Below are positions 8,916 to 54,219 of a DNA stretch of 64,000 bases, in pieces; the first letter of the stretch is position 1, and each line of letters starts with the position of its first letter. The position numbers and the translations under genes are program-made. The stretch is from a phage. The stretch is taken from the NCBI GenBank assembly GCA_024672315.1, contig GCA_024672315.1_4714.1. One strand, 5' to 3'. Under the pieces are notes generated by a model. That model searched no databases and was not told the DNA's origin. It saw nothing but the letters and a program-made list of their open reading frames with translations.

Positions 8916-9153
8916 TTAGCAATGGTTGTTAGTTGCTTCTATTTCGTCAAGATACGGTTCTACGTCATCGCCCTCCACGAATTCGTTGAACCAACAGTCA
9001 ATGGTAGAAATAACCGGTGACTGGTGTTCACATTTCTTAGATACCTTAAAAGGTACGTTATTATCCATCATACCGAGTTCGGGTCGAAAACGCCCGAAAT
9101 GTTTCGCAGTCCAAATGTCTGGGACGATATGGTTGTTCATAGCGTCTCCGTCG
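8916..9153 (-). CDS. RNA polymerase beta'-like subunit (nvRNAP-type), 3' exon encoding the catalytic loop
   Basis: In-frame minus-strand translation from 9153 reads DGDAMNNHIVPDIWTAKHFGRFRPELGMMDNNVPF..., matching the bacterial beta' segment DFDGDQMAVHVP...LMMSTNNILSP. The ORF track shows only a 74-aa fragment (8916..9140) because an in-frame stop lies upstream in the intron. Confidence 0.65.
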
Positions 9154-9530
9154 CTGTTTATCGACTATATCTTCATCCTCATTGCGAGGAGTCTCCCGTT
9201 TGGGTCTGTGTTTAACAGAGCCTACTCTACTCGACGTCGCGTCTTTCGATAGTCTGTGAGCACACATCTTAACAAACATTCGTGGATTCCTAAACAGGTG
9301 AATGTTCTTGTTGAGATGCTTCGCTGCGGATTATTCCCGTCCTACCTCTTTTACCGTACCCAGTTCATTACGCTGGCCCTCATCTATGTCACCACGATGA
9401 GTTGGTGTGTAGTCCGATTACAGAAACTTCCCGTCAATTAGAGAGTTTTAACTACGTTCCTGTTACCAGAAACCAGATCCCGACGGTATCAATAAATCAA
9501 CGTAAGTTATTGATTTAATTGAAAAAACTG
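9154..9530 (-). ncRNA. group I self-splicing intron (second intron in the nvRNAP-type beta' gene)
   Basis: Minus-strand core elements in canonical 5'-to-3' order: P-like AATTGACGGGAAG (plus 9427-9439), Q AATCCGCAGCG (9322-9332), R GCTCACAGACTATCG (9247-9261), S AAGATATAGTCGA (9161-9173). Exon nucleotide before the intron is U; intron ends in G at 9154. Only about 9 nt follow S, so no P9 is evident and the exact 3' boundary is uncertain. Confidence 0.6.
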
Positions 9531-9549
9531 AAATCTGCATTATCTAAAT
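9531..9549 (-). CDS. 19-nt micro-exon of the beta'-like gene encoding (Y)LDNADF
   Basis: Minus-strand AT TTA GAT AAT GCA GAT TT; joined to one upstream exon nucleotide (T) and to the downstream exon (C GAC GGA GAC) it gives YLDNADFDGD, restoring the universal NADFDGD Mg-binding motif. Flanked by intron 3' G (9550) and followed by the next intron. Confidence 0.5.
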
Positions 9550-9932
9550 CTTCAGTATGGTTCGCTACGCCATACCCGCACATACGTGCAACTTACGTCT
9601 TTCACGTAAGAAGAGACTATATCTTTCACCCTCAGCATTATCTGGTCGGGGCTCCCATTTCGGCGGTCATCTGACCGGTGGTTTCCCACGCCGCTTGGCC
9701 CTAACGCCCGTAAGCGATAGTCGTTGAGCGCATCTCCGTTCTGGAGACTTCGCTGCGGATTCCCCAATCCTTGCCGCTTTTACCATACCCGAATGATTAG
9801 TTCAGCCCCACGCGCTGTTCCCAGGCGTGGTTGGTGGACAAGGCTCTAAGTAGGTTCCCGCATTAGAGAGTTCCTCGTAACAACATTTCTGCGTTACTGG
9901 GCCTAACGACCCTTTCAAGATCATCACGCTTA
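9550..9932 (-). ncRNA. group I self-splicing intron (first intron in the nvRNAP-type beta' gene)
   Basis: Minus-strand P TAATGCGGGAA (plus 9855-9865), Q AATCCGCAGCG (9751-9761), R GCTCAACGACTATC (9716-9729), S AAGATATAGTC (9615-9625), P9-like hairpin CTTACG-tgaaaga-CGTAAG (9592-9610). The 5' boundary at 9933 is a best guess (exon ends in U, frame gives Tyr when joined to the micro-exon). Confidence 0.65.
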
Positions 9933-11151
9933 ACCCGATGGTGTTATCCTGCGGATCGCGTTTAACCTTGGTGATTTCAAGACATTGGTTACTGCTTCGG
10001 TCAAGTGATGGGTTTCGAACAAAGCCACACACAATCCCATCGAACGGTGTATCAGCAATAAGCTCATCATGCAGCTCGCTCATCATCGGATGATAATTAC
10101 GGACATGTTCCGCAACGAACGCACGTGCTGCTCTTGGTGAATAACCACGATGGAATAACTTGGATTGGATATGTTCTTTATTGGTTAAAGTAAATGGTGC
10201 GTATGGGAAATGCAGATGATAATAACGATGGTTCGCTGTTATCGAACTGATTACGGTACGCGTGGTAAATGGATGTAATGTACCTAATATGTTTTTACGT
10301 GTGATACCTTTCTTCTTACCGATGAACTCATCGAAAATCGCCGCATGGTATTGCAGCAGCTTCAATTGCACTTTCGCCATCCAGTTTTCTTTCTTTCTGG
10401 CGCTCAAAGGTGTTGTTGGATGATAGATACTGTTCAACGTACCGATAGCATCGATCGCACCTTCCATTTTGCTATCCGCATAACGACCGGTTGGCGTATT
10501 CTCGATAACGAACATCATGGCCGCAGGAAAGCTGATATACTGACTGAAGAACTTATCACGATGAATACGGATGAATTCTCGTAGCGTGTCAACTTTCTCC
10601 GTGTTCTTCGGTCCACGTAACGTCGGTCCTTTATACAAGATCTCCATGATGCGATCGAAGTTCTGTATAAAACTATTTACGCCACGTCGTATCCCGAATA
10701 CATCGAATTGCTGCTCCAGATAGTTCTTGAGTTCGATGGGTCGTTTTACATTTGGACGGTAACTGGCATCAATGAGCCACGTCATCGTTTCAAAGCTTTT
10801 GATATTCAACTCGCTTGCCAGCACGAGATGGACCAACGGGTTAATGAACGCATCGATTCCTTCAGGAACGCGCGCCCACACCGTCGAACGAATCTCCTGT
10901 TCTGCTGGGTAGGTTACAACCGTTTTACAGTTTGGACACACCGTGCCGAGCAGCTCACCACGATTGTAGAAACCACAACCACATTGTGGCGTGATATCCA
11001 ACGTATCGCTGGAGTAAACACGGGTGATAAAACTGTTTAATTTCTTCTTCTCTTCGACGACTTTTGTATCGTAATCGTTCAACAAAATCGGCGTAAAAGG
11101 AAGTTCTGCGAGCTGTCTATCGAAACTCACGATATCGAGCATGATGGCCAT
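9933..11151 (-). CDS. RNA polymerase beta'-like subunit (nvRNAP-type, N-terminal part), 5' exon
   Basis: Zn-finger-like CGCG...CPNC near the N-terminus; GKKKGITRKNILGTLHPFTTRTVISS resembles beta' [39 protein letters not shown] resembles NRAPTLHRLGIQAFEP (switch 2). ORF-track runs on to 9802, but the last ~43 codons are judged intron read-through. AGGAGA RBS. Lies immediately downstream of the chimallin candidate, as gp54-gp55 do in phiKZ. Confidence 0.7.
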
Positions 11152-11243: not shown

Positions 11244-13139
11244 TTAGAACAGGTTGAATGCCCCACCCATGTTGTTACCGCCAACATTCGGACGATCGCT
11301 ACGTGCGTAGATGTTGCCGGAGATGTTACCCAGACCACGAGCACGTGCTGCCATGTTACCACGAACAGCGGTACCTGCCAGGTGCTGGATGTTCTCAGGA
11401 CGGATGGTGAAGCCAGCATCAGCCGCAGCTTCGATCAGCGCCTGCAGTGCTAACGGATCGAAGTCGTAACGCATTGCCCAGCCGGTTTGTTCCCAGCTAC
11501 CAGACAGAACACGATCAATGATTTCGTGACGAGCGACAACACGCTGAGACATCGTCATATCGGTACGGTCGAAGCTGTCTTCCCAAGCTTCTACGGTATC
11601 CGGGTTAGTGATGTTCATCATGTACAGATCGTCCATATCACGAATATCGTGACGGTGACCATCCTGGTGGTTGTAGTAACCCAGCGGGATACGGTTACCG
11701 GTAGCGTAGACCAGCGGTTGGCCGTATTGATATTTCTTGCTGAAGCAACCCAGGGTAGTATCATCGAAGGCACGGTAGAGTGCTTTGTAACCTTCGGAGA
11801 TTTCTTGAACTTTACCGTCAACGTTGCCCGTAAAGATCTTCTCAGCCGCCGGGATCATACGCAGCAGCCAGCTATACTCGCCTTCTTCCGGTACGTCGAT
11901 AGAAATCAGCAGAGACGGATACAGAACCTGTTGCAGGAACTTGTAAATCTGCTCGTTGGTTTGCGTAGACAGATCCAGCGGTGCAGTCACTTCAGGATCC
12001 AGCACCATCGCCAGAGCACCTGGGTTATGCGGACCAATACCACGAGCCGCGTTGCTGATTAAAGACTGTGCCCATGCCATGCCGCTGTTCAGCGTAGCGA
12101 TGGTACCAATCAGACCCAGCACGAAGCTGTTCGGTGTGAACGCATCCAGCTCCAGCGGGTAAACGCTGGTCATCACGTAACGCGGCTGGTACTGTACAGT
12201 CGGCGGTACCGGATAGCCGTTAACCAGAACAGGGCCTTGGTTGAAGGTCGGGTTCTGCGGGCTGTAGGTCAGGTCAATGTAACCGGTGGTGGCGACCAGA
12301 CGCTGTTGACTATCGTAATCGCTCATCGCTTGACGGATGCGGTTAGAGATAGTTACAGTGATGTCAGAACGCACAGGGTTACCAACAATATCGCTGTCCT
12401 GCATACCGCTGGTGTTGTACTGAACGCTGCTGATTGGCTGATCGCTTGCCATCATGCCCAGGTTGAACTGCGGCAGACCCAGTTTATCACCGAGACGGAT
12501 TTCGATCGCGGTTTGGATTGCGTTATCTGCAGCAGACAGCAGGGTGGTTGCCAGATGCGCAGATTCAGCGGTGATTTCATTGGTCACCACAGCCAGACCA
12601 GCGATACGAACAGTACCGTTAGACTTACCGCCAATAGCTGAATACATTGCCGCCATGACTTCGTTGATGAACGTACCGTTCAGGTTATCAACCCAGGTAC
12701 GCGGTACCAGAATGTTACCATGCGGACCTTGTTCTTCACGACGCGGCAGCGGAGCCAGACCAGCAACCAGCGGCAGGACGTAACCGAAGAAGTGGTTATG
12801 ATCACCAACTTTTGCACCGCTCATAACAACCAGGGTCGGATACGGTACGCTGTACTGGTTCGGGTCAACCGCAACAAAGATGAAGTCGTCTTTGAACTGG
12901 GTATCTTCCAGATATTTCTCCATCAGACGACGGAGATTCAGTACCTGCTCGGAGCCGGTATTACGGCTGATACGACGGCTCAGTGTACGGTTGATCGTAC
13001 GCATCGTATGAGTTACTTTAGGACGGTCGGCAAAATCTGCAGCGGTTTCCAGCGCCTCATCAGCACGTTGTGCGGTGCGGGTTTCAGCTGCACGAATTTC
13101 TACATTATCGTTACCGTTATTACGTACGTCTAAGCCCAT
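11244..13139 (-). CDS. chmA: candidate chimallin (phage nucleus shell protein, ChmA-like)
   Basis: 631-aa ORF with AAGAGGAA RBS and codon usage typical of a highly expressed gene; early-promoter motif about 73 nt upstream; sits directly upstream of an nvRNAP-type beta' gene (phiKZ gp54-gp55 arrangement) and about 12 genes from the PhuZ homolog. Assignment is by size and synteny, not by a recognised motif. Confidence 0.55.
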   Translation of the reverse strand: MGLDVRNNGNDNVEIRAAETRTAQRADEALETAADFADRPKVTHTMRTINRTLSRRISRNTGSEQVLNLRRLMEKYLEDTQFKDDFIFVAVDPNQYSVPYPTLVVMSGAKVGDHNHFFGYVLPLVAGLAPLPRREEQGPHGNILVPRTWVDNLNGTFINEVMAAMYSAIGGKSNGTVRIAGLAVVTNEITAESAHLATTLLSAADNAIQTAIEIRLGDKLGLPQFNLGMMASDQPISSVQYNTSGMQDSDIVGNPVRSDITVTISNRIRQAMSDYDSQQRLVATTGYIDLTYSPQNPTFNQGPVLVNGYPVPPTVQYQPRYVMTSVYPLELDAFTPNSFVLGLIGTIATLNSGMAWAQSLISNAARGIGPHNPGALAMVLDPEVTAPLDLSTQTNEQIYKFLQQVLYPSLLISIDVPEEGEYSWLLRMIPAAEKIFTGNVDGKVQEISEGYKALYRAFDDTTLGCFSKKYQYGQPLVYATGNRIPLGYYNHQDGHRHDIRDMDDLYMMNITNPDTVEAWEDSFDRTDMTMSQRVVARHEIIDRVLSGSWEQTGWAMRYDFDPLALQALIEAAADAGFTIRPENIQHLAGTAVRGNMAARARGLGNISGNIYARSDRPNVGGNNMGGAFNLF

Positions 13140-14554: not shown

Positions 14555-16708
14555 TTACTCTGTGGTTTCTCGCTTCGGTAAATAACTTGCTGCAATGTCT
14601 TGGGCTAACAATGTATTGTTTTTATTCGAGATGAAAATACCGTAACTTTCCATTAACGCGTAATACGAACGCACGAGCGTAGAGATCAATCGACGAATAT
14701 CCATACCTTGAATAAAGATATCGGGAAGCCCGGAGGCTTCGATCACCGGTAATGGTATCGTTAAGTTGCTTATCGTTTTCTTATCGTTACGTACAATCCA
14801 ATCACGGAAACGTTGTTGTAACCCTTTATCCTCCCAGGAATCAATCCAATCGTTAAGAAGCGTTTTGTTCTTCGTCGCCAACGGCACACGAACCCCAACA
14901 TAGGGTGGTTCCTGGCAATGGCCGTACGATTGAGCAAACACCTCTTCCCACATATCGTAAGACTGTTTCGTTACTGCAACATGCGGTTTCACTTTAACAC
15001 GTGTTAAGAAATCAGGATCACCACGTTTCATGGACTCAACGATTTCGTTTTCTAACGAGATAATATCGTCAAGAACCAATCGAATGCTGATCTTCTCATT
15101 ACGTAACAGCTTATCCATGATACCGCACATCATGCGTTCAACACGTTTGACGATCATTTTTGGTGCTGACGCATCGCGCATAACCGGACCTTTCAATTCC
15201 AGCTTCGGTGGATTGATAGGAACCCCTTCACGCATGGTCATGTAACCGTAATAGTTTTTACCCATCGAGGTTAACGACAGAATCAAGAACATATATTCGT
15301 TCTTCATTTCCATCACGTACATATGCTCTTTCGCCACACCGATATTACCAGAACACATCGCCATCAGATGGACTGTAATCTGCGTAACCAGATAGATAAG
15401 CGTGTTTGCTAAGCGCGTCGAAACTGGATTGATCTCCATATTTCCAAATCGCCACTGAACCCACTCCTGGCAGGTAAACACTGTCGAGTCGGTATCAGAC
15501 AACACACCCACTTCACGGATTGCTGATGGGAAAGCATAAACGCCAGCCGGTTGATTCTCGGTACGCCAGAACGCCATAATCAAATCAGCGTAGCTTTGGA
15601 TACGCTGTAGCATTAATTTTGTCGTTGCTGCGGTAAGACGATAACCAAGTTCATTTCCTTTTTCTAGCGCTACGTAAATCGCCTCCCCATTCAAGAACTC
15701 CGTGCATTGTGCTGTAATCCAAGCAACCGTGTTGTTATCCATGGAAGCAATAATGGCTTTAGCCTCTTCCATCGTTTCAACAGGTTCGGATGCCAGTTCA
15801 CATAACGAGTCAAGAAAATCTCGAACAAATTCAGGATTAAGCTCACGTAACGAGTACAGGTTATTGCTGTACATGTAGCAGGCGCGTTCTAATGGCGTTA
15901 AACCGGTAATTAGCTCCCGGATGGTCAGCTCTTTCTCTGGGTCGAAAGTATATCGATGCAAGCATTTCGATACGTTAGCCCAAACCTCTTCCGGCGTAGG
16001 GTAATGCAGTTTGTATTTTACCATTACCTGCTCAATGGCTTTACGATCGCTATTACGAACAATGCTCACGATGTTTTCAATTGCGATATCACAATCGTAA
16101 TAATGGAAATTGCCCGCAAGGAAGCGTTCGTTGTTCGCATTGGCTGAACCTGAAGCACAGCGACATGTTGTCGTTAAGCTTGGATGCGCAATCGGATTAT
16201 AAAAAGGGTTGAACTTGGACGCCTGGGTTCCTGACAAACTGTTGTTATCTAACTTGGTGTTGGTTTGTCGCTTATCGTGTAACTCAGCTTCATCTTTACG
16301 TCCGTGTGCTTGTGCTATCGACATTTGTTTCTTTTGTTTCTTACGCAACTTACCGTTTTCAACCGCAAAGTCGCTTAGCACACTGGAGCGTGTCTCACGT
16401 GGATAACAGTTAGCCCACACCGGCGTGATAATTAAATTATTTTCTTTAATATCGTTGAAGTATTGGCTGAACTTGATGACTTCTTTTTCACGATTTCCTT
16501 CGGTACGCTGTGTTAATACCAGGCAGTCGGGATCAACCATCCCGTATTTTCCACCAGGACGAACCGTTTCAAGAACAAACTGCAACGCTTCCTGCTGAGA
16601 TATCCCACGCATGCGCATTAAGAATAGGGTATAATCCTGTACCGCTTCTTTGGTCATATCCAACGTACGACCATATCCGTTTTCATCGTAAAAGAACGGA
16701 TTTTCCAT
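14555..16708 (-). CDS. hypothetical protein (717 aa)
   Basis: Long uninterrupted ORF; contains a DTDS-like tetrapeptide (VGVLSDTDSTVF) but no recognisable ordered polymerase motifs, so no function is assigned. Confidence 0.5.
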   Translation of the reverse strand: MENPFFYDENGYGRTLDMTKEAVQDYTLFLMRMRGISQQEALQFVLETVRPGGKYGMVDPDCLVLTQRTEGNREKEVIKFSQYFNDIKENNLIITPVWANCYPRETRSSVLSDFAVENGKLRKKQKKQMSIAQAHGRKDEAELHDKRQTNTKLDNNSLSGTQASKFNPFYNPIAHPSLTTTCRCASGSANANNERFLAGNFHYYDCDIAIENIVSIVRNSDRKAIEQVMVKYKLHYPTPEEVWANVSKCLHRYTFDPEKELTIRELITGLTPLERACYMYSNNLYSLRELNPEFVRDFLDSLCELASEPVETMEEAKAIIASMDNNTVAWITAQCTEFLNGEAIYVALEKGNELGYRLTAATTKLMLQRIQSYADLIMAFWRTENQPAGVYAFPSAIREVGVLSDTDSTVFTCQEWVQWRFGNMEINPVSTRLANTLIYLVTQITVHLMAMCSGNIGVAKEHMYVMEMKNEYMFLILSLTSMGKNYYGYMTMREGVPINPPKLELKGPVMRDASAPKMIVKRVERMMCGIMDKLLRNEKISIRLVLDDIISLENEIVESMKRGDPDFLTRVKVKPHVAVTKQSYDMWEEVFAQSYGHCQEPPYVGVRVPLATKNKTLLNDWIDSWEDKGLQQRFRDWIVRNDKKTISNLTIPLPVIEASGLPDIFIQGMDIRRLISTLVRSYYALMESYGIFISNKNNTLLAQDIAASYLPKRETTE

Positions 16709-20806: not shown

Positions 20807-20859
20807 GCTTTCTCCTACGCGGCATAAAAGCCTGCCCCGAAGGACAGGCTCGATAGAAC

Positions 20860-21060
20860 TTAATAACCATCCAATTTCAATGAAGGATGGTTGACGATAT
20901 GTGCGTGTTTTGCTGGGTCATATAGCTGATATGGAAAATAGCCATGCCATTGACGGCCTTGGCATTTCGTACACAGGAACTGACCAGCACTTTGTCGATT
21001 CTCGTAAGCGAGTTCGGTACTATCAACATGACCGCAACGTTCGCAGATAAACAGCGACAT
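20860..21060 (-). CDS. small zinc-ribbon-like protein
   Basis: 66 aa with two CxxC pairs (CERCGH...CTKCQG). Confidence 0.4.
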   Translation of the reverse strand: MSLFICERCGHVDSTELAYENRQSAGQFLCTKCQGRQWHGYFPYQLYDPAKHAHIVNHPSLKLDGY

Positions 21061-21097: not shown

Positions 21098-22078
21098 TTA
21101 GAAAAGCAAGAAACCGCTATTCTTCGCTTCCGCTACAGTTTCGTCACCAACTTTCGGTGCCTGTTGACGTGCGTTACGATGTTCGATGTAACGTTTCGCT
21201 TCGTCCGCGATCTGTTTGATAATACCCCCTAAACGATCGGTACTTAAAACAAACGACGTCGCTTCACGAATCGGGCTGCTTTCAGGCACAAAACCATCAC
21301 AGCTGTAAATAGCGCTAACGCCCATGACTTTGGTCGCGTCTTTCGGATAAAGCGTACAGAAAGCAATCGGGCTATCGTTCTCTTTCGTCCAATCGTATCC
21401 CATGAACGTATTCAGTTCGGTGATCGTTGGTTCCAAACCGGTAACACGCGGATGGTTTAAGAAGTTTTCCAGGTCGGCGCTGTCAAGACGACGGTTCTCG
21501 CCAGAAAACAGAACACAAAGCTGGCTAATAACAACCTGCACGTCCAGGTTGACATCCTGCTCCGATTTCCCATTTTCGCCATTCATGTGATAGCTAACAA
21601 TCACTGGACGTTTCAACCCTTCTGCGGCTGCCATCAGTCCTTTGAAGGTGCGATCGGCGTTGATCGTCTGACGCTCATCATCGAACGAGGCAACGATACA
21701 ACACACCACACGTTCACCGCGTTCCAGCAGATTAGCAACCAACGCAGGACCGGCAACAGAACCTGAACCACCGCTCAAACTAAAGACCACGATATTAAAT
21801 TTACCTGGCGTATGCTTATTGAGAATACCTGGGATTTGTGAACAGATCAGCTCAGCGTTCTCATCACGCTTCTTACCGGAACCGTCTAGCTCACGACCAG
21901 CTGCATCTTTAAAGATGTAAATATGATCGTCGCCCAGTGTGCTATCGCGTAGGTTAGCGCGGCTGGTATCAACATACGTCATGCTGTGTAATCCTTTCGC
22001 GACTTCGCCTTCAAATGCTGAGCCGATTTCGCCACCACAACCACCGACAGCCCAAATATGTACTTGGTTCTCTTGCAT
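21098..22078 (-). CDS. phuZ: PhuZ-like phage tubulin (tubulin/FtsZ-family GTPase)
   Basis: 326 aa; N-terminal AVGGCGGEIGSAF resembles the FtsZ GGGGxN motif; FSLSGGSGSVAGP resembles the tubulin signature GGGTGSG; N-A-D in a T7-loop-like position; size matches PhuZ; AGGAG RBS. Confidence 0.8.
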   Translation of the reverse strand: MQENQVHIWAVGGCGGEIGSAFEGEVAKGLHSMTYVDTSRANLRDSTLGDDHIYIFKDAAGRELDGSGKKRDENAELICSQIPGILNKHTPGKFNIVVFSLSGGSGSVAGPALVANLLERGERVVCCIVASFDDERQTINADRTFKGLMAAAEGLKRPVIVSYHMNGENGKSEQDVNLDVQVVISQLCVLFSGENRRLDSADLENFLNHPRVTGLEPTITELNTFMGYDWTKENDSPIAFCTLYPKDATKVMGVSAIYSCDGFVPESSPIREATSFVLSTDRLGGIIKQIADEAKRYIEHRNARQQAPKVGDETVAEAKNSGFLLF

Positions 22079-22142
22079 GTGAACTCCTAACTTAATATGT
22101 ATTTAACGCACAATGAATCTTACTTTGCTAAAGGGGTGACCC

Positions 22143-22985
22143 ATGGGTGCTATTGACTACAGTGTAGATCGTATCTGTCGTACAATACCGGCAGATATCC
22201 TACAGTATTGCTATATCGATCGTTACGACTGGCGTAATCGCTATCCTCGTTCCGTAGAAGACATCATTACCGATTGGGTAATCCGTAAACGGGTTATCGG
22301 CGACATCGATATCTACGGGGGACTACAAACCGTTATTCCCCTTGATGATGCCGGTGTCACTATCGAAGAAGTCACCATTAACTGTTATGTTTTCCACATC
22401 CCGTTGGAAGCCACGCAGGGACGTTATATCACGTCTGCATTATCCATTATTTCAGGGAGCGTGAACAACTACGGAATAAACTATAACGGTCAATGGGGCG
22501 CTTTCAACCAAACCCAATTTCAACGTCAGCTTTGCGGATGGAACCCCGCAAGCAACACATTACAGCAAGGGATGAACGCGTTCGGTCCCATGAACGTTCT
22601 TAGTACAGCCAACGTTGATATCATCGCCCCTAACACCATCATGGTGAACAACGTCACGCCTGTACAATTTCCCCTGAGTCTACGTTGTTTCCTTGCCCAC
22701 GATCCGGAACTTACTAACCTCAGCATGGAGGTTTGGAACGACTTCTACAAACTCTGTTTATACGCCACACAAAGTGACATCTACAACAGAACCGTTATCC
22801 GTCTTGATAGAGGTGTTACAGCACAAGGACAAGAAGTCGGTGCATTCAAGGAATACATCGATCGCTTTGCTGATGCTGAAAACACATATCAGGAATTCCT
22901 GAACGAAACGTGGGCTGGCGTTGCTGCCTGGAACGATCCACAAACTAAACGTCGCGCCATTCGTTTGCAAACCGGTTACTTCTGA
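22143..22985 (+). CDS. hypothetical protein
   Basis: 280-aa plus-strand ORF divergent from the tubulin gene. Confidence 0.5.
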   Translation: MGAIDYSVDRICRTIPADILQYCYIDRYDWRNRYPRSVEDIITDWVIRKRVIGDIDIYGGLQTVIPLDDAGVTIEEVTINCYVFHIPLEATQGRYITSALSIISGSVNNYGINYNGQWGAFNQTQFQRQLCGWNPASNTLQQGMNAFGPMNVLSTANVDIIAPNTIMVNNVTPVQFPLSLRCFLAHDPELTNLSMEVWNDFYKLCLYATQSDIYNRTVIRLDRGVTAQGQEVGAFKEYIDRFADAENTYQEFLNETWAGVAAWNDPQTKRRAIRLQTGYF

Positions 22986-43087: not shown

Positions 43088-43115
43088 ACCTCCTTACCCA
43101 CATGGGTAAGGAGGT
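43088..43115 (-). terminator. putative rho-independent terminator
   Basis: ACCTCCTTACCCA-catg-TGGGTAAGGAGGT palindrome followed on the minus strand by ACTTTTTATGCC; downstream of the 43269 stop. Confidence 0.5.
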
Positions 43116-47458: not shown

Positions 47459-50400
47459 TTATTTAGCGTCGTTAAAGTAAATATCAACAGCTCGTTCCGT
47501 TGCGTAGAGGAGACCAAGATTCACAGTCCCAACCACTTCCGGTGAACCGATGATACGGTTAGCGATACTGGTGCCACTGAAGATAGCATCAAGGGTGTGC
47601 CCGTCTTCGGTTTTGTTCACACCATGACCCACGGAAGAGACAACGGATTTCGCTTGTGCTGCGAAGGTACCTTTATCACCCATCCCCGCACCAAGGTCGT
47701 AACGCATGAAAATACGGATAGCGATCTGGTTCTCGCCTAACGGATTACCGTCTATTCTCACGTTACTGTTATTGATACGCCCTGTTGTTGCCTCGCTGAG
47801 TTTCAGTTCCTTGACGCGTTTAGCTCGCGCTTTATCCGCTTCACCGACGAGCGCCGCCATGGTTTCGCTCATATCCTCAATCTGAGCGCGGTACAGTACA
47901 TCGATCTGTACAACTTCACCATGAACATCAGCACGTGGGTTATACTGACTCATACGACGTAATGCTTCAACGGCTTCCTGACTCTCATCACTCAGATCAG
48001 TTGCGATCGGTTCTTCCAGTGTTGCAAGAATCGTTCGCGGTTCAACGTGGTCGCCGATTTTCACAAGACCACGAATGTTGAGATGGGCGTCAACGATAAG
48101 CGTACGGCTCTTAATCGATGGTGTTACGAGACGATCAGCAAGATTGTCGAAGATATACGAACTGTCCTCGTGAGTCTCTGGAATATCCAGAATACCGACA
48201 AGAGACAGAACACCTGCGCGCCAAACAACCTGACCCGGGTTCCACCAATCGCGTTTAAAATAAAGACGATGGAAAACCACCACATCCTGATCCTTAACGC
48301 GATCCCCGACTTTATAATCGGTAATGAGATCATGGGGATAATACTTACCTGGTCCTTTCCCGATTATCGTACCGAGCTGGAAAACCTCTTCCCCTAACTC
48401 TGGATCGTCGTATTGTATCGTAAGCGCGGTTTTGGTGACCTTCTTCACAACACCATCGCCTTGGGCAGCTGCTGCGAAGAGCTTACCAACACGATGCGCG
48501 ATGACAGTCTCACCACCTGTACGCCACGGTTGTACATCGTAACCTTCAGCAGCAATCATGCGGTTGTGTTGGATCCCGACAAAGACCAGACGTTTTCCAT
48601 CGTCGCGGTCTACAGCCGGAACAGCTAACGCTGACGTACTCATTACCGATGAAATGCCGTCTGTCTTTTCATCGAATGGTCGTGTTTCACCATATACCGA
48701 CACGATATTAGCATTAGGTGCGAGGTAAGCAGAAATACCTACGTCCCCGCTATCTTTCGTACCCTCTGACACAATACCAACATCGGACTTGTCGTATTCA
48801 CGATCGCGTGCGCGTCGAAGCGATGTCTTTGAACGACCTCCGATACCGGTCATCGTCGCTTCTTCACCCTGCTTGATATCCAACATCGGGTTGGTTTCAT
48901 CAATCACGATGGAAGCACTGTCGTCGAGAATCTGGTTCCAGACACTTACCGGACTGATTGATATTTTCTGGCGATTTCCTTGACTGCTGTTCTCATTCTG
49001 ACGAATAGCACCAACCAGGTCCTTATACACCAATTCAGCGAACTTATCGTACGTTTTAAAACGTTGGTAGTTCACATCGTTCGTGTTAGGAGCCCAATCA
49101 TCCAGAAGCAGTTCAACAGCACGCAGTAACAACATGGCGAAATCGGTAGGTTCTCCCATGTTCTGTAGCAACGTACGGCTTACCGGATCAACGAAAAGAC
49201 GCTCCATGAGTTCAAGTTCGCGTAAATGACGAACCTTAAGTCCAGCACCATCGACAACGTTAAAATAGATATCTCGATTGTCAAAAGCGCCGCGAGCGTA
49301 ACCGATGTAGTTACGGTATTCGTTAAACCCACCCAGCAACAACGTCGTCATGCGATCGTCTTTACTGAAGATCAAACTTTCGTCATCAAAGCTCACCGCG
49401 AATTCATCGGGTGCTAGACCCATACGAGAACCGCGAGGTACCGTACGATAGTTCGCTTTAAGATGTTCTAATAACGGGGTAAGTCCACCCAGATAACTTA
49501 GAACAACACCGACCGGAATACGTACACCCATGAATTCAAGATCGGCGGCTTCGATCGGCATCTTAGCCGCATTGATACCGAAGAAATCAGGGAACGTCCC
49601 TACAGGTGTTGGTGTTTGTCCTGACTGACAGATATAGAGCTGATTGCGTTTATCGATTGCTAAGAATTCACCCAGCGTGTTACGCGCAAACGTCAGGAGC
49701 CCTTCGGCTAACTGTTCGTTGAACCGATCTTCCCCGATGAACTCCGGCAATGTCTTTGTATCGAGACGTATATCCCAATCAGCAAATTGGATTTGGGTAT
49801 AGTTGCGTGCAAGCACAGCGAAGTAATACGGAACTTTGACGGCCGGATCAAAGACGTTACCGCGTTTCAACGTGGTTAAGGGTGAGGATTTATCGTAATA
49901 CATCGCCGTAAGTTGACGTGTTAGCCAACGACCGGCGTTATTAACGACGCGCTCTGAACGTTTAACAAACACCTTACCGTAGGCGGTACTCAACGCAACT
50001 TCAGATGACGATACCTTTCTAATAGGTTTATCAACACGTTGTTTACGCATCCGGTATTTGATGCCGTTAACGACATAAATGCCATCCTTACGAACCTTCG
50101 GCAACATCACCGGGAACGTGGTCGGGACACCGCCTACGGGAGCCAGTTTAATCGTGATGACTTGATAATCCCCCATCACGTCAACAACATCTTCGACTTT
50201 ATATCCCGTAACAGGGTAACCCGCCTGCTGTACCGCAACAACAGCGGCTGCGATGTCCTTTTGCATTACGTGTTCAACGTAATGTTTATCCCACACCGCA
50301 AGCGTCGATTTACACAGGCTCTTATCGACGATAACATCCGCTTCCGGCATAACCTTTGCAGGAGCTAATTTCGCGGCTTTTGGTTTAACTTCAACATACT

Positions 50401-51805
50401 CGGCAAGTGTTAATCCAGAACCGTCGGGTGCTTCGATTTCATGGATGGCGTCAGCATTACGCATCGCTGCTTTATATTGGACACCGCTTAACTGACCTGC
50501 ATCGGCCAGATCGCTCGCGCGCACCAACACCGCATCCGATAACGACTGAATATACTCACCGTGTGTTTTTGGTAACGTTGTCGCGTCAAAGACATCAACC
50601 TTTTCTTCTTCGGTATCGTCGGTAACGACTTCGAAGAGATCGTCGGTAATGTCCTGATCTTCATCAGGTTGGAAATCCGGTTGTACTTCTACCCCAGGTA
50701 CTTCACGGACATCTTCGAACGAGCGTTCTACAATGGCGTTCCACGCATCAGCGTCATCGTCTTCATCCGACCCGCCGACCAACTCAGCTTCTAACTCATC
50801 GGGATCAAGAACGGTAGCCAGATCCTCACCGTTAGGAAGCACGACGTCGCGATCATCGTACTCCGCATCCGGGCTGTCCGCAAGAATATCTCGCTCCTGA
50901 CGAAGAACCTGTTCCTCTTCTTGTTTCTGTTCTTCTTCATTCGCGCTCTGCGACCACAGACGTGTTACCGCCATCATCCAACGACGTTGGAAGGTTTCAA
51001 GTGTCGTTTTATCGAGTTCTTCCCCTTCCTTTACAAGTCCGGTACGCCATTCTTCCAGCAGGCCGAGATTCAGCGTAAAGAAGTACACGCCGTCTGTGAA
51101 TACAACGTTAAGCTTGTCCAGCGTGGCTCTGTCTAACGAAGCCATCGTGCTGTTCTCACGATCGGTTCCCAGCCAGCGGAAGAAGTCAAAGAACGACAGC
51201 TCCTCCGGTGTGGCGAAATTCATGAGGTTGTTACGGGTCGGTGCCTGTTGCGTGGTACGCATCAACGAAATCTTCGGCAATGTTGACGGTATACGGAACA
51301 ACAAAAAGTGTTGGCGATCGCTTTGCTGTGCGATTTCGTTGGCTTTCGACCAAATTGTTTTACGTACATTGAACCATTCATCATACCAACGGGTGAGCGT
51401 TGGACGATAAATGTACATGTGGTTAAGATGCGCGTAGTTAGCAACGATCTGAGCGTTGATGTTTTTCTCCACCGTGCTTAGATCGGTAACCAAACGAAAA
51501 CGACGATGTGATGCACGATAATCCAATTTCGCTCGTGGGAGTTGGAATCGTTGATCGCGTCGAGGTGCACCCTGTTTGGTTGCGAGATCATCAGCAAACG
51601 AAATCCATAGTTGAGCATTTTCTTTACTCAGCATGTATTCGTTTTCTGGAGGACCTATCAATGAAGGATCCGTTGCGATGTAATGATAGACAGCATAACG
51701 CGGCAGCTGCAATAGCTGCACTAAACGTAATCTTGGTGATAGTAACTCTTGGTAGCGTCTGACACCAAACTGTCGGTAGTAATCAAGGTATTTAAGTTTT
51801 GCCAT
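47459..51805 (-). CDS. multisubunit RNA polymerase beta-like subunit (vRNAP-type, N-terminal part of beta)
   Basis: 1448 aa; TGIGGRSK...VGIVSEGTKDSGDVGISAYLAPNANI resembles the beta fork-loop region; GDKGTFAAQAKSVVSS...TEDGHTLDAIFSGTSIANRIIG resembles the GDKxxxRHGxKG...DENGxPVDIVLNP region; the protein ends about 60 aa after this, with no GEME-type C-terminal region, consistent with a split beta. GGAG RBS. Large acidic insertion in the N-terminal half. Confidence 0.75.
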   Translation of the reverse strand: MAKLKYLDYYRQFGVRRYQELLSPRLRLVQLLQLPRYAVYHYIATDPSLIGPPENEYMLSKENAQLWISFADDLATKQGAPRRDQRFQLPRAKLDYRASHRRFRLVTDLSTVEKNINAQIVANYAHLNHMYIYRPTLTRWYDEWFNVRKTIWSKANEIAQQSDRQHFLLFRIPSTLPKISLMRTTQQAPTRNNLMNFATPEELSFFDFFRWLGTDRENSTMASLDRATLDKLNVVFTDGVYFFTLNLGLLEEWRTGLVKEGEELDKTTLETFQRRWMMAVTRLWSQSANEEEQKQEEEQVLRQERDILADSPDAEYDDRDVVLPNGEDLATVLDPDELEAELVGGSDEDDDADAWNAIVERSFEDVREVPGVEVQPDFQPDEDQDITDDLFEVVTDDTEEEKVDVFDATTLPKTHGEYIQSLSDAVLVRASDLADAGQLSGVQYKAAMRNADAIHEIEAPDGSGLTLAEYVEVKPKAAKLAPAKVMPEADVIVDKSLCKSTLAVWDKHYVEHVMQKDIAAAVVAVQQAGYPVTGYKVEDVVDVMGDYQVITIKLAPVGGVPTTFPVMLPKVRKDGIYVVNGIKYRMRKQRVDKPIRKVSSSEVALSTAYGKVFVKRSERVVNNAGRWLTRQLTAMYYDKSSPLTTLKRGNVFDPAVKVPYYFAVLARNYTQIQFADWDIRLDTKTLPEFIGEDRFNEQLAEGLLTFARNTLGEFLAIDKRNQLYICQSGQTPTPVGTFPDFFGINAAKMPIEAADLEFMGVRIPVGVVLSYLGGLTPLLEHLKANYRTVPRGSRMGLAPDEFAVSFDDESLIFSKDDRMTTLLLGGFNEYRNYIGYARGAFDNRDIYFNVVDGAGLKVRHLRELELMERLFVDPVSRTLLQNMGEPTDFAMLLLRAVELLLDDWAPNTNDVNYQRFKTYDKFAELVYKDLVGAIRQNENSSQGNRQKISISPVSVWNQILDDSASIVIDETNPMLDIKQGEEATMTGIGGRSKTSLRRARDREYDKSDVGIVSEGTKDSGDVGISAYLAPNANIVSVYGETRPFDEKTDGISSVMSTSALAVPAVDRDDGKRLVFVGIQHNRMIAAEGYDVQPWRTGGETVIAHRVGKLFAAAAQGDGVVKKVTKTALTIQYDDPELGEEVFQLGTIIGKGPGKYYPHDLITDYKVGDRVKDQDVVVFHRLYFKRDWWNPGQVVWRAGVLSLVGILDIPETHEDSSYIFDNLADRLVTPSIKSRTLIVDAHLNIRGLVKIGDHVEPRTILATLEEPIATDLSDESQEAVEALRRMSQYNPRADVHGEVVQIDVLYRAQIEDMSETMAALVGEADKARAKRVKELKLSEATTGRINNSNVRIDGNPLGENQIAIRIFMRYDLGAGMGDKGTFAAQAKSVVSSVGHGVNKTEDGHTLDAIFSGTSIANRIIGSPEVVGTVNLGLLYATERAVDIYFNDAK

Positions 51806-51988: not shown

Positions 51989-52507
51989 CCTTGTCTTCGC
52001 CTCAGGTCGCTACGCTGAGACCGCCTGCGTGGATACGTACATCACAGGCTGCTTGCACTTTCATGCAAGAGGAGACTATATCAAACCGTCAGCTTCACCT
52101 GCTACGGTAACCTACACTTCGAAGACGCTTGTCCTCTACAGGGTGGTAAATCCCTTAGTCGTTGAACCTGCGTTGTTTCACATTCTTGTTTGCAAGAATG
52201 CCGTATTGCTACGCAACAACCAGGCTGCTGATTGCCCATTATCACGCACCTTAGCACCGCTTACGCGGCTTTTCTTTCAGCCTAAGCCTCCGTGGGAGGT
52301 AGTGCATCTCAACTGTTGTTTCCGCCTTTCGGCACCTCATGGGTTGTTGAGCTTTAGGGGTTCCCAGCAATTCGTAGGTTTTTCAAGCACTCCCTTTCGG
52401 GAATACCGGACCAATTCAGTTAGTAAACAACATTATTACCATCCCTCATTCTTAAGGGTTAATTTTTTAAAATGATAAAATTAATGTGTTTTTGGGCTAA
52501 CTCGAAG
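51989..52507 (-). ncRNA. group I self-splicing intron in the vRNAP-type beta' gene
   Basis: Minus-strand P CGAATTGCTGGGAA (plus 52361-52374), Q AATCAGCAGC (52225-52234), R GGTTCAACGACTAA (52155-52168), S GATATAGTC (within 52072-52084), P9-like hairpin CTTGCA-tgaaag-TGCAAG (52052-52069). Exon nucleotide before the intron is U (52508); intron ends in G (51989). Splicing gives ...YLAGLGGD|FDGDTV.... Confidence 0.7.
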
Positions 52508-53974
52508 ATCACCGCCTAAACCGGCGAGGTATGGCGCAGGAACAATAGTCGTTTCTACGAACGAAGCATTAGGTAACCAGTCGGGGTATTCCCATGCGAT
52601 AAATCGTTCATCCGTTATTGGTTCCCAGTTACTATCCAGTTCGGTTTTCGGTTTTGCAGCGACGGTTGTACGCGCGTAACAGGTTAACGGGATAACGGAT
52701 TGCATACCCGATACCGGATAACGTGTTACCATCGCAGCCAGGTTATTCCAGTACTTATATCCGGCGATATAGATAAGCTCGGTGTAAGTAATGGGGTGAA
52801 CATCCGCACCAGGTTTATTCAACATCTCTGGGGGTAATTCACTCATACCACGGAATAACCGAAACGAATCGTTGTTCACATAGACGAGGCAAAGATAACG
52901 TCCATTAACCATGATAGGCTCGTTACGCACACCAGGATCGCTTAAGGTGTTCAATAAACGTTCTATTCCGTCCCATGTTGTAAAGTCATCGATGGTATCT
53001 GGGTCTAACGTGACACGTTCACGTTCCATCGTTTCGATATCGATAAGTTCAACTTCTGTAACATCACGGACAAATATTTCCTGCAAAATCCCCGTACGTA
53101 GCGCATGTTGCGTTACAGGGAGAGCAGCTTTACTCATCTGGTATAACCCTAACTGAACCGCGGTACAGGAAGGCTGGTTAGGCGACCCTAATACCTCCGT
53201 TGTGGGGTTAATTGCCGAAATAACGTTACGGGTTGAGTTCCAAACGCGACGTGAGCCGAACTTACCTTGGAAGATCCCTTTCTTACCCTGGAACATATCC
53301 AACAGTAAAGCGTAGATATCGTTAAATGTTCTCTGTAAGCTCCAACGTTGACCGTCGTAAACGGGATCAGAATAATCTTTTAATCCATCAGGGACGGTGT
53401 TAGAAATTGCAAGGAAACGACGATACAACTCCGTGATTTCTTGCTCGCTTTCATACCCACCTTCTTTTACTTCTATTTCACGTAAGCCTGCAGGCAATAC
53501 CAGTAAGTGACGGGTCATCGCTTTGAACATGTTCTCTTCGACAACTTTAATTCGTAGCTCTCGTTGAGCTGAACCCGTTGAAACGAACTTGATATCAGCG
53601 ACGTGTTGTGCAAAGAACCCGTATCCTGTTTGTCCTGTTAATGCATCAGACGCAACGAAGTCGCGTTGTTCAGGATCCCAACGAGCATACGCCTTTCCCG
53701 ACATGATATCACCATAGAGGTGTTTTAGTCGAATGAGGCGGTCGTAAATGACGGGATGCAGGATTTCAACTTTGCATTCAATCACCGCAAATCGACGGTC
53801 TCGATCTTCACTACCTGCGCTACCAAAGATGGTGTAAGAATAGAAACCATCATCGTGGAAATTACCGGTGCTTGGGTCACGAATGCTCATGCTCGTGATC
53901 TTGGGGAGAAAACGTAACTGCTGTTTATCGAGGTGTAAAATGCTAATGTTAAACGGCTCTCTGACTTTAGCCAT
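52508..53974 (-). CDS. RNA polymerase beta'-like subunit (vRNAP-type, N-terminal part), 5' exon
   Basis: DGFYSYTIFG...RRFAVIECKVEILHPVIY resembles beta' DGLFCARIFG...RRERMGHIELASPTAHIWF but lacks the Zn-finger cysteines; GKKGIFQGKFGSRRVWNSTRNVIS resembles [23 protein letters not shown]. Start set at ATG 53974 with AGAGGAG (ORF-track 54016). ORF-track end 52481 includes 27 nt of intron read-through. Confidence 0.7.
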
Positions 53975-54219
53975 GGAGACACTCCTCTTTACCACCACCG
54001 GCTGCGGCGGTATCATCTGAACACACGAGAGACGTAATGGGTGATGGCGTCACCCATCGCTTCCTTGCCTGATGCCAGGAAGTTATTAGGTTACGTACCG
54101 GCTTGATAAAATCAAGCAGGCGATGTGTGAAGTTACGCTTCAACATTATCAATGCCGAAGGTAAGCTTCGTGCATCACGTTCCAACGTAACATGGGAACG
54201 TATCGAACTGGAGGTATAC

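Follow-up and report, generated by a model that had tools for sequence, protein, structure and literature searches.

A phuZ tubulin gene nearly identical to that of Escherichia phage Goslar in a 64-kb stretch of phage DNA

In Pseudomonas phages the PhuZ tubulins assemble into a bipolar spindle by which the phage nucleus is both centred and rotated, whereas the Goslar type forms a vortex that rotates the nucleus without positioning it (PMC9891218; PMC12908238). When GFP-PhuZ was followed in Goslar infections, the share of cells with filaments was 19% at 30 min and 97% at 60 min (PMC9891218; review PMC12908238). These filaments were arranged as a vortex-like array round the nucleus and reached the membrane, and the direction in which the nucleus rotated matched their orientation (PMC9891218; PMC12908238). 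Expression of the dominant-negative D202A form of Goslar PhuZ, which polymerised at a much lower expression level, abolished the vortex and reduced the share of rotating nuclei to 29% (Birkholz 2022; PMC9891218), a phenotype consistent with loss of GTP hydrolysis (PMC9891218). Nucleus position and growth were left unchanged by D202A (PMC9891218; PMC12908238). PhuZ is dispensable, and 66.2% of chimallin-encoding phages encode a homologue (PMC10299810); since it is absent from about a third of these phages, its contribution to fitness may be modest.

The DNA analysed here (the window, 64,000 nt of phage contig GCA_024672315.1_4714.1) was approximately 96-98% identical to the genome of Escherichia phage vB_EcoM_Goslar (NC_048170.1 / MK327938.1) and collinear with it from Goslar position 158708 to 225289. 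The phuZ coding sequence occupied 21098..22078 on the minus strand, with an ATG start and 326 codons plus stop. An earlier note on this DNA had placed a tubulin ORF of ~326 aa at exactly these coordinates, which include the stop codon; the coding strand is the minus strand, and the plus strand of 21098-22078 was full of stops in the same frame when ORFs were checked. A Shine-Dalgarno sequence, AGGAG (22084..22088, minus), was located 5 nt before the start codon, the upstream sequence reading ...TTAGGAGTTCAC-ATG. The Goslar orthologue is HOV27_gp234 (YP_009820885.1), which RefSeq names 'tubulin PhuZ' and GenBank lists as 'hypothetical protein Goslar_00201' (gp201 in the GenBank numbering), and PhuZ gp234 was seen by mass spectrometry in Goslar preparations. 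The window gene differed from Goslar phuZ at 16 of 981 nt. Fifteen of the codon changes were synonymous and one was conservative, at codon 229 (21392..21394, minus), which is GAT (Asp) in the window and GAA (Glu) in Goslar PhuZ and in the 9pm9 protein; this excess of synonymous change indicates purifying selection on a functional protein. The Goslar protein, for which the structures PDB 9pm9 and 9pmk are available, is thus 99.7% identical to the window protein. Residue 229 was a variable column in the family alignment, and there is strong reason to expect that the E229D allele of the window would behave like Goslar PhuZ.

Profile and sequence searches gave a PhuZ match over nearly the full length of the protein. 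The PHROGs profile phrog_4733 'tubulin PhuZ' matched aa 1-323 of 326 with an E value of 2.9e-68, and the best match among PDB sequences was Goslar PhuZ itself (9pm9 chain C, E 4.3e-220, 325/326 identical). PhuZ of phiKZ (3zbp) followed at E 7.8e-29 and PhuZ of 201phi2-1 (3r4v/3rb8/3j5v) at E ~6e-15. The generic Pfam Tubulin profile PF00091 matched aa 9-151 with E 8.3e-7, but its 29.9 bits fell short of the gathering score of 33, indicating that the window protein is a divergent tubulin by sequence; two relatives, P0002 and P0003, scored 33.9 and 36.7 bits with the same profile, above the cut-off of 33. The tubulin/FtsZ and PhuZ profile searches that the earlier note had proposed as a check both returned significant matches, the generic Tubulin profile by E value while short of its gathering score. 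The phage-tubulin C-terminal profile PF22334 (TubZ_C_2) did not match the window PhuZ even at E 10, and it reached only 17.3 and 16.3 bits on P0002 and P0003 (56-61% identical relatives) against a cut-off of 27; more distant homologues passed. The C-terminal domain of the Goslar clade falls below the PF22334 threshold, in contrast to phiKZ and 201phi2-1 PhuZ. This domain aligns structurally with the PhuZ proteins of those two phages, so the miss more likely reflects limited sensitivity of the profile than absence of the domain. By tblastn, 173 phage records were matched, in many of which the matched gene is annotated PhuZ or tubulin-like. Judged by sequence, the protein reads as an unambiguous PhuZ with family-specific profiles and as a divergent tubulin with generic ones.

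The AlphaFold2 model, built on a 23-sequence alignment, had a mean pLDDT of 87.4 and a pTM of 0.86, and only the tail at aa 306-326 was poorly defined (pLDDT 47-68). An alternating strand-helix GTPase domain was followed by helix H7 (173-190), the T7 loop, helix H8 (200-207), then a C-terminal domain of four strands and, at the end, a long helix. Lack of a Rossmann-like GTPase domain from the predicted fold had been named as grounds for dismissing the PhuZ reading; the domain was present, together with H7 and the C-terminal domain. In the fold comparison the model was closest to 9pm9, 'PhuZ Tubulin from phage Goslar (locally refined monomer)', released 2025-12-24 (Foldseek E 1.3e-60, TM 0.91; comparison score 45.8), followed by phiKZ PhuZ (3zbq; Foldseek TM 0.82; score 38.6) and 201phi2-1 PhuZ (Foldseek TM 0.80 with 3r4v; score 37.2 with 3rb8). 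The model, its C-terminal domain included, aligned with the phiKZ and 201phi2-1 structures over 305-311 residues. CetZ (25.2), TubZ (24.7) and FtsZ (22.5) ranked below the PhuZ proteins; BtubA scored 21.4, eukaryotic and Asgard tubulins about 21, and generic Rossmann-fold enzymes about 10. The predicted fold is that of tubulin/FtsZ, and PhuZ is its nearest branch. With a full-length PhuZ profile match, and with PhuZ proteins as the top matches in both the PDB sequence and the fold searches, the proposal of a PhuZ-like tubulin held.

The same comparison bears on whether the protein could be a TubZ. Tubulins of that kind serve type III partition systems, known for instance from Bacillus plasmids and Clostridium phage c-st, and move phage or plasmid DNA by way of an adaptor that binds the centromere. 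TubZ was far from the model in fold, at 24.7 against 37.2-45.8 for the PhuZ proteins, and the four adjacent ORFs, namely the DUF7484 gene, the 66-aa zinc-ribbon ORF, the phrog_5903 gene and one that matched no PHROG, gave no match to an adaptor family. A partition system of this type was rejected on fold distance and on the neighbouring ORFs, and we consider it exceedingly improbable. TubZ of plasmids and of phage c-st, CetZ and FtsZ shared 11-17% identity with the window PhuZ, against 22-28% for PhuZ of phiKZ (gp039; 3zbp/3zbq) and of 201phi2-1 (gp059; 3r4v, 3rb8, 3j5v), and the window PhuZ had no cell-division context.

Conservation was assessed in an alignment of 23 sequences, the window PhuZ and 22 homologues; the homologue search had returned 23 proteins at E < 1e-5, two of the relatives among them being 61% and 56% identical. 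Invariant columns were M1, D37, T38, S39, N42, G66, G68, R71, G103, G104, V108, N140, Y163, N166, D199, D202 and G262, and G12, G13, G15, S105, G106 and S107 were at least 90% conserved. Of the invariant residues, D37, T38, S39, N42, G66, G68, R71, G103, G104, N140, Y163, N166, D199 and D202 lay within or beside the glycine-rich loops and T7; going by tubulin/FtsZ structures in general, we take most of these columns to belong to the nucleotide-binding loops T1-T6 and to T7. The T1 glycine-rich loop, VGGCGGEIGS (aa 11-20; 22019..22048, minus), was placed by the model at the junction of strand S1 and helix H1. The T4 tubulin-signature loop, SGGSGS (aa 102-107; 21758..21775, minus), aligned with GGASGS in phiKZ PhuZ and GGGSGS in 201phi2-1 PhuZ. 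The earlier note had pointed to these two loops at the spacing expected of a tubulin, and they were indeed separated by ~90 residues, a distance also seen in the aligned phiKZ PhuZ. The T7 loop and the start of helix H8 (RLDSADLENF, aa 197-206; 21461..21490, minus) carried the catalytic-site aspartates D199 and D202, the latter encoded at 21473-21475 (minus). Both were located between H7 and H8 in the model, and they aligned pairwise with D187 and D190 of 201phi2-1 PhuZ. One aligned sequence departed from this pattern: P0001, the representative of a 90% cluster and encoded on an NCBI contig of 7.2 kb, was 97% identical to the window protein, had SGGSAAV for SGGSGSV in the T4 loop, and was the only sequence in the alignment to break G106 and S107. 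Either an inactive allele or an error of assembly could account for this sequence.

The C-terminal tail (aa 306-326; 21101..21163, minus), a low-confidence extension beyond the last long helix that ends in ...APKVGDETVAEAKNSGFLLF, kept the family pattern of acidic residues, a G322 conserved in at least 90% of the sequences and a hydrophobic terminus. The corresponding tail of 201phi2-1 PhuZ reportedly has a role in subunit contacts. By analogy, the tail of the window protein may mediate longitudinal or lateral contacts.

Conservation also speaks to the idea that the gene is a decaying or catalytically dead remnant. PhuZ is an accessory protein that has been lost repeatedly and sporadically in chimallin-encoding phages, and the 66.2% occurrence and dispensability noted above (PMC10299810) favour such a reading. 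By contrast, the window ORF was intact with a good ribosome-binding site, every invariant GTPase residue was retained, and the changes against Goslar were 15 synonymous to 1 conservative non-synonymous. Further, the identical protein was encoded on 488 public contigs, and its Goslar orthologue is expressed and active. The chance that this phuZ is a remnant is accordingly very slight.

The ORF is thus very probably phuZ, encoding a tubulin/FtsZ-family GTPase of an Enterobacteriaceae Goslarvirus whose vortex filaments rotate the chimallin-bounded phage nucleus. The GTP chemistry of the window protein is assigned from its superfamily membership and conserved residues. In the proposed mechanism, each PhuZ monomer would hold GTP in loops T1-T6 of its N-terminal Rossmann-like domain, and monomers would polymerise head to tail, with D199 and D202 in the T7 loop of one subunit completing the GTPase site of its neighbour. 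The filaments would be dynamic owing to hydrolysis of GTP. Filaments of the Goslar type would then wrap the chimallin-bounded nucleus as a vortex-like array extending to the membrane, and their growth would push tangentially and cause the nucleus to rotate. In Pseudomonas phages, rotation of the nucleus spreads the capsids around the shell for DNA packaging. The window allele occurs in assemblies of Salmonella, E. coli and Shigella, so that to carry the Goslar filament geometry over to another host is an extrapolation.

The earlier note had described the protein as the tubulin of a spindle that centres the phage nucleus, and this part of the claim was not upheld, since in the Goslar lineage the array is vortex-like and rotates the nucleus, and the GTPase-site mutant leaves positioning unchanged. 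A bipolar spindle anchored at the cell poles that drives the nucleus to midcell and keeps it in place, as in 201phi2-1, PhiPA3 and phiKZ, would agree with the family and fold that the window PhuZ shares with the spindle-forming proteins. It would also agree with the two long, spindle-like filaments that flank the nucleus in some Goslar-infected cells (PMC9891218). However, these long filaments were always accompanied by short, vortex-forming ones, and the Goslar nucleus was found anywhere along the cell, with D202A expression having no effect on its position (PMC9891218; PMC12908238). We therefore regard a positioning spindle as very improbable for the window protein, and the rotating vortex is the reading preferred here.

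The transcription unit of phuZ likely ended at a hairpin terminator at 20824..20850 (minus), read by eye as AGCCTGTCC-TTCG-GGGCAGGCT followed by TTTAT; the matching site in Goslar is annotated as a terminator with -18.8 kcal/mol. A simple terminator scan around phuZ did not pick up this hairpin, and the pattern scan as a whole stayed at the level of shuffled sequence, with 5 promoter-like sites against 4.5 in shuffles and 3 terminator-like sites against 2.9. Since jumbo phages of this type rely for transcription on RNA polymerases of their own, sigma-70 patterns are probably irrelevant around phuZ. Between phuZ and the hairpin, 37 nt downstream of phuZ, was a small ORF of 66 aa with a zinc ribbon-like arrangement of four cysteines (Goslar gp235; 20860..21060, minus), which is probably carried on the same transcript as phuZ. 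On the other side, phuZ was paired divergently with a DUF7484/phrog_3179 gene of 280 aa (22143..22985, plus; Pfam PF24302 E 1.4e-87, phrog_3179 E 3.9e-62). The same divergent pair was observed in the loci L004 and L005 (PF24302) and in phage LucasX (phrog_3179). In phage Xoo-sp14 a phrog_3179 gene occupied the matching slot, and phuZ was absent from it. In Erwinia phage Ea35-70 a divergent gene, Ea357_206, adjoined PhuZ; its link to the family is a 'weakly similar' note in the Goslar record only.

The four-cysteine ORF belonged to a family of proteins of 62-74 aa with invariant F4, C6, C9, V12, D13, C30, C33, W38, H39 and N57; relatives were located at L004 4992-5186, L005 4989-5177, L008 2989-3189, L009 2995-3198, L010 2998-3222 and L011 2995-3195. 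The protein matched no PHROG, all of its Pfam zinc-ribbon matches were sub-threshold, it had no relative of solved structure, and a literature search found no mention of Goslar gp235. The gene directly followed phuZ in five divergent lineages (the window and Goslar, the metagenomic L004 and L005, and the Xanthomonas phages LucasX and RTH11), and in Pseudomonas phage pPa_SNUABM_DT01 it was 1.8 kb downstream of phuZ. No unannotated zinc-ribbon ORF was found after phuZ in Erwinia phage Ea35-70. Such linkage would suit an undescribed accessory factor of PhuZ, such as a protein that nucleates filaments, anchors them to the membrane or shell, or regulates their geometry, although we consider this very improbable. 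If true, the factor could help to explain the choice between vortex and spindle, a question raised in a review (PMC12908238). Xoo-sp14 kept the zinc-ribbon gene with no detectable PhuZ, and in Erwinia phage pEa_SNUABM_54 the gene was ~69 kb from phuZ, so the linkage may be plain conserved gene order. Conserved gene order is the simpler reading.

The surrounding genes were those of a nucleus-forming jumbo phage, as the earlier note had proposed from this tubulin together with a chimallin candidate and two split RNA polymerases. Chimallin, the main protein of the nuclear shell, was encoded at 11244..13139 (minus) and matched phrog_4795 'nuclear shell protein' with E 1.8e-54; the corresponding Goslar gene, gp246, is annotated 'nuclear shell protein'. 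Its presence in the window indicates that the genome is that of a nucleus-forming phage. A phage DNA polymerase gene was located at 14555-16708 (minus). Three RNA polymerase beta-type pieces were recognised, one at 9802-11151 (minus) and two at 47459-51805 and 52481-54016 (both minus), the last two equivalent to Goslar gp207 and gp205, both of them identified by proteomics as virion-RNAP subunits; the annotation and virion proteomics of Goslar agree with these gene assignments. Elsewhere, a 28-bp stretch at 43088-43115 perfectly matched the opposite strand at the corresponding Goslar position, showing that it is self-complementary (palindromic). The ORFs on either side of it matched Goslar gp213 and gp212, the latter annotated as the head maturation protease, and the stretch may form a hairpin or act as a terminator.

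The only structural differences from Goslar in the 64 kb were at two intron-bearing RNAP loci. Two HNH endonuclease ORFs of Goslar, gp186 (HNH_3 + NUMOD1) and gp206 (HNH_3 + weak NUMOD1), were both missing from the window, the sites concerned being window 9141-9157 against Goslar 167847-169281 and window 52413-52506 against Goslar 212227-213796. The adjoining group I introns were kept (RF00028 at 52052-52436 with 63.6 bits and at 9154-9521 with 47.8 bits). An additional insertion of 367 bp at window 9544-9910 (minus), absent from Goslar, was observed in the same RNAP subunit gene as the second of these introns, ~70 nt upstream of the Goslar-type intron. It scored weakly as a second group I intron (30.8 bits and E 1e-5 with RF00028 at 9593-9929, short of the gathering score), and its segment 9674-9761 shared 85.6% identity with unannotated sequence where the record of Escherichia phage Av-05 begins. 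Intron endonucleases are described as mediating competition among co-infecting chimalliviruses in a reference cited in the review PMC12908238.

The exact window PhuZ was present on 488 public contigs of up to 259 kb, in assemblies of Salmonella enterica, E. coli and Shigella, whereas Goslar's own allele was present on 10, which makes the window allele the more common of the two among public sequences. On the 488 contigs the protein was mostly named 'hypothetical protein', probably because PhuZ scores just under the Pfam Tubulin threshold. The genus Goslarvirus grew from 1 to 237 genomes when bacterial assemblies were mined for lytic phages (PMC12768965), and the spread over 488 contigs fits this expansion. 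A paper on the anti-jumbo-phage defence Avs5 was checked for PhuZ as a defence trigger, and PhuZ appeared there as a background mention only. The phuZ assignment is right and already known: the Goslar orthologue is annotated in RefSeq, was imaged and mutated in 2022, and had its structure released in December 2025. The value of the present result is one of annotation, in that PhuZ together with chimallin reliably marks such contigs as nucleus-forming Goslarvirus and not bacterial DNA.
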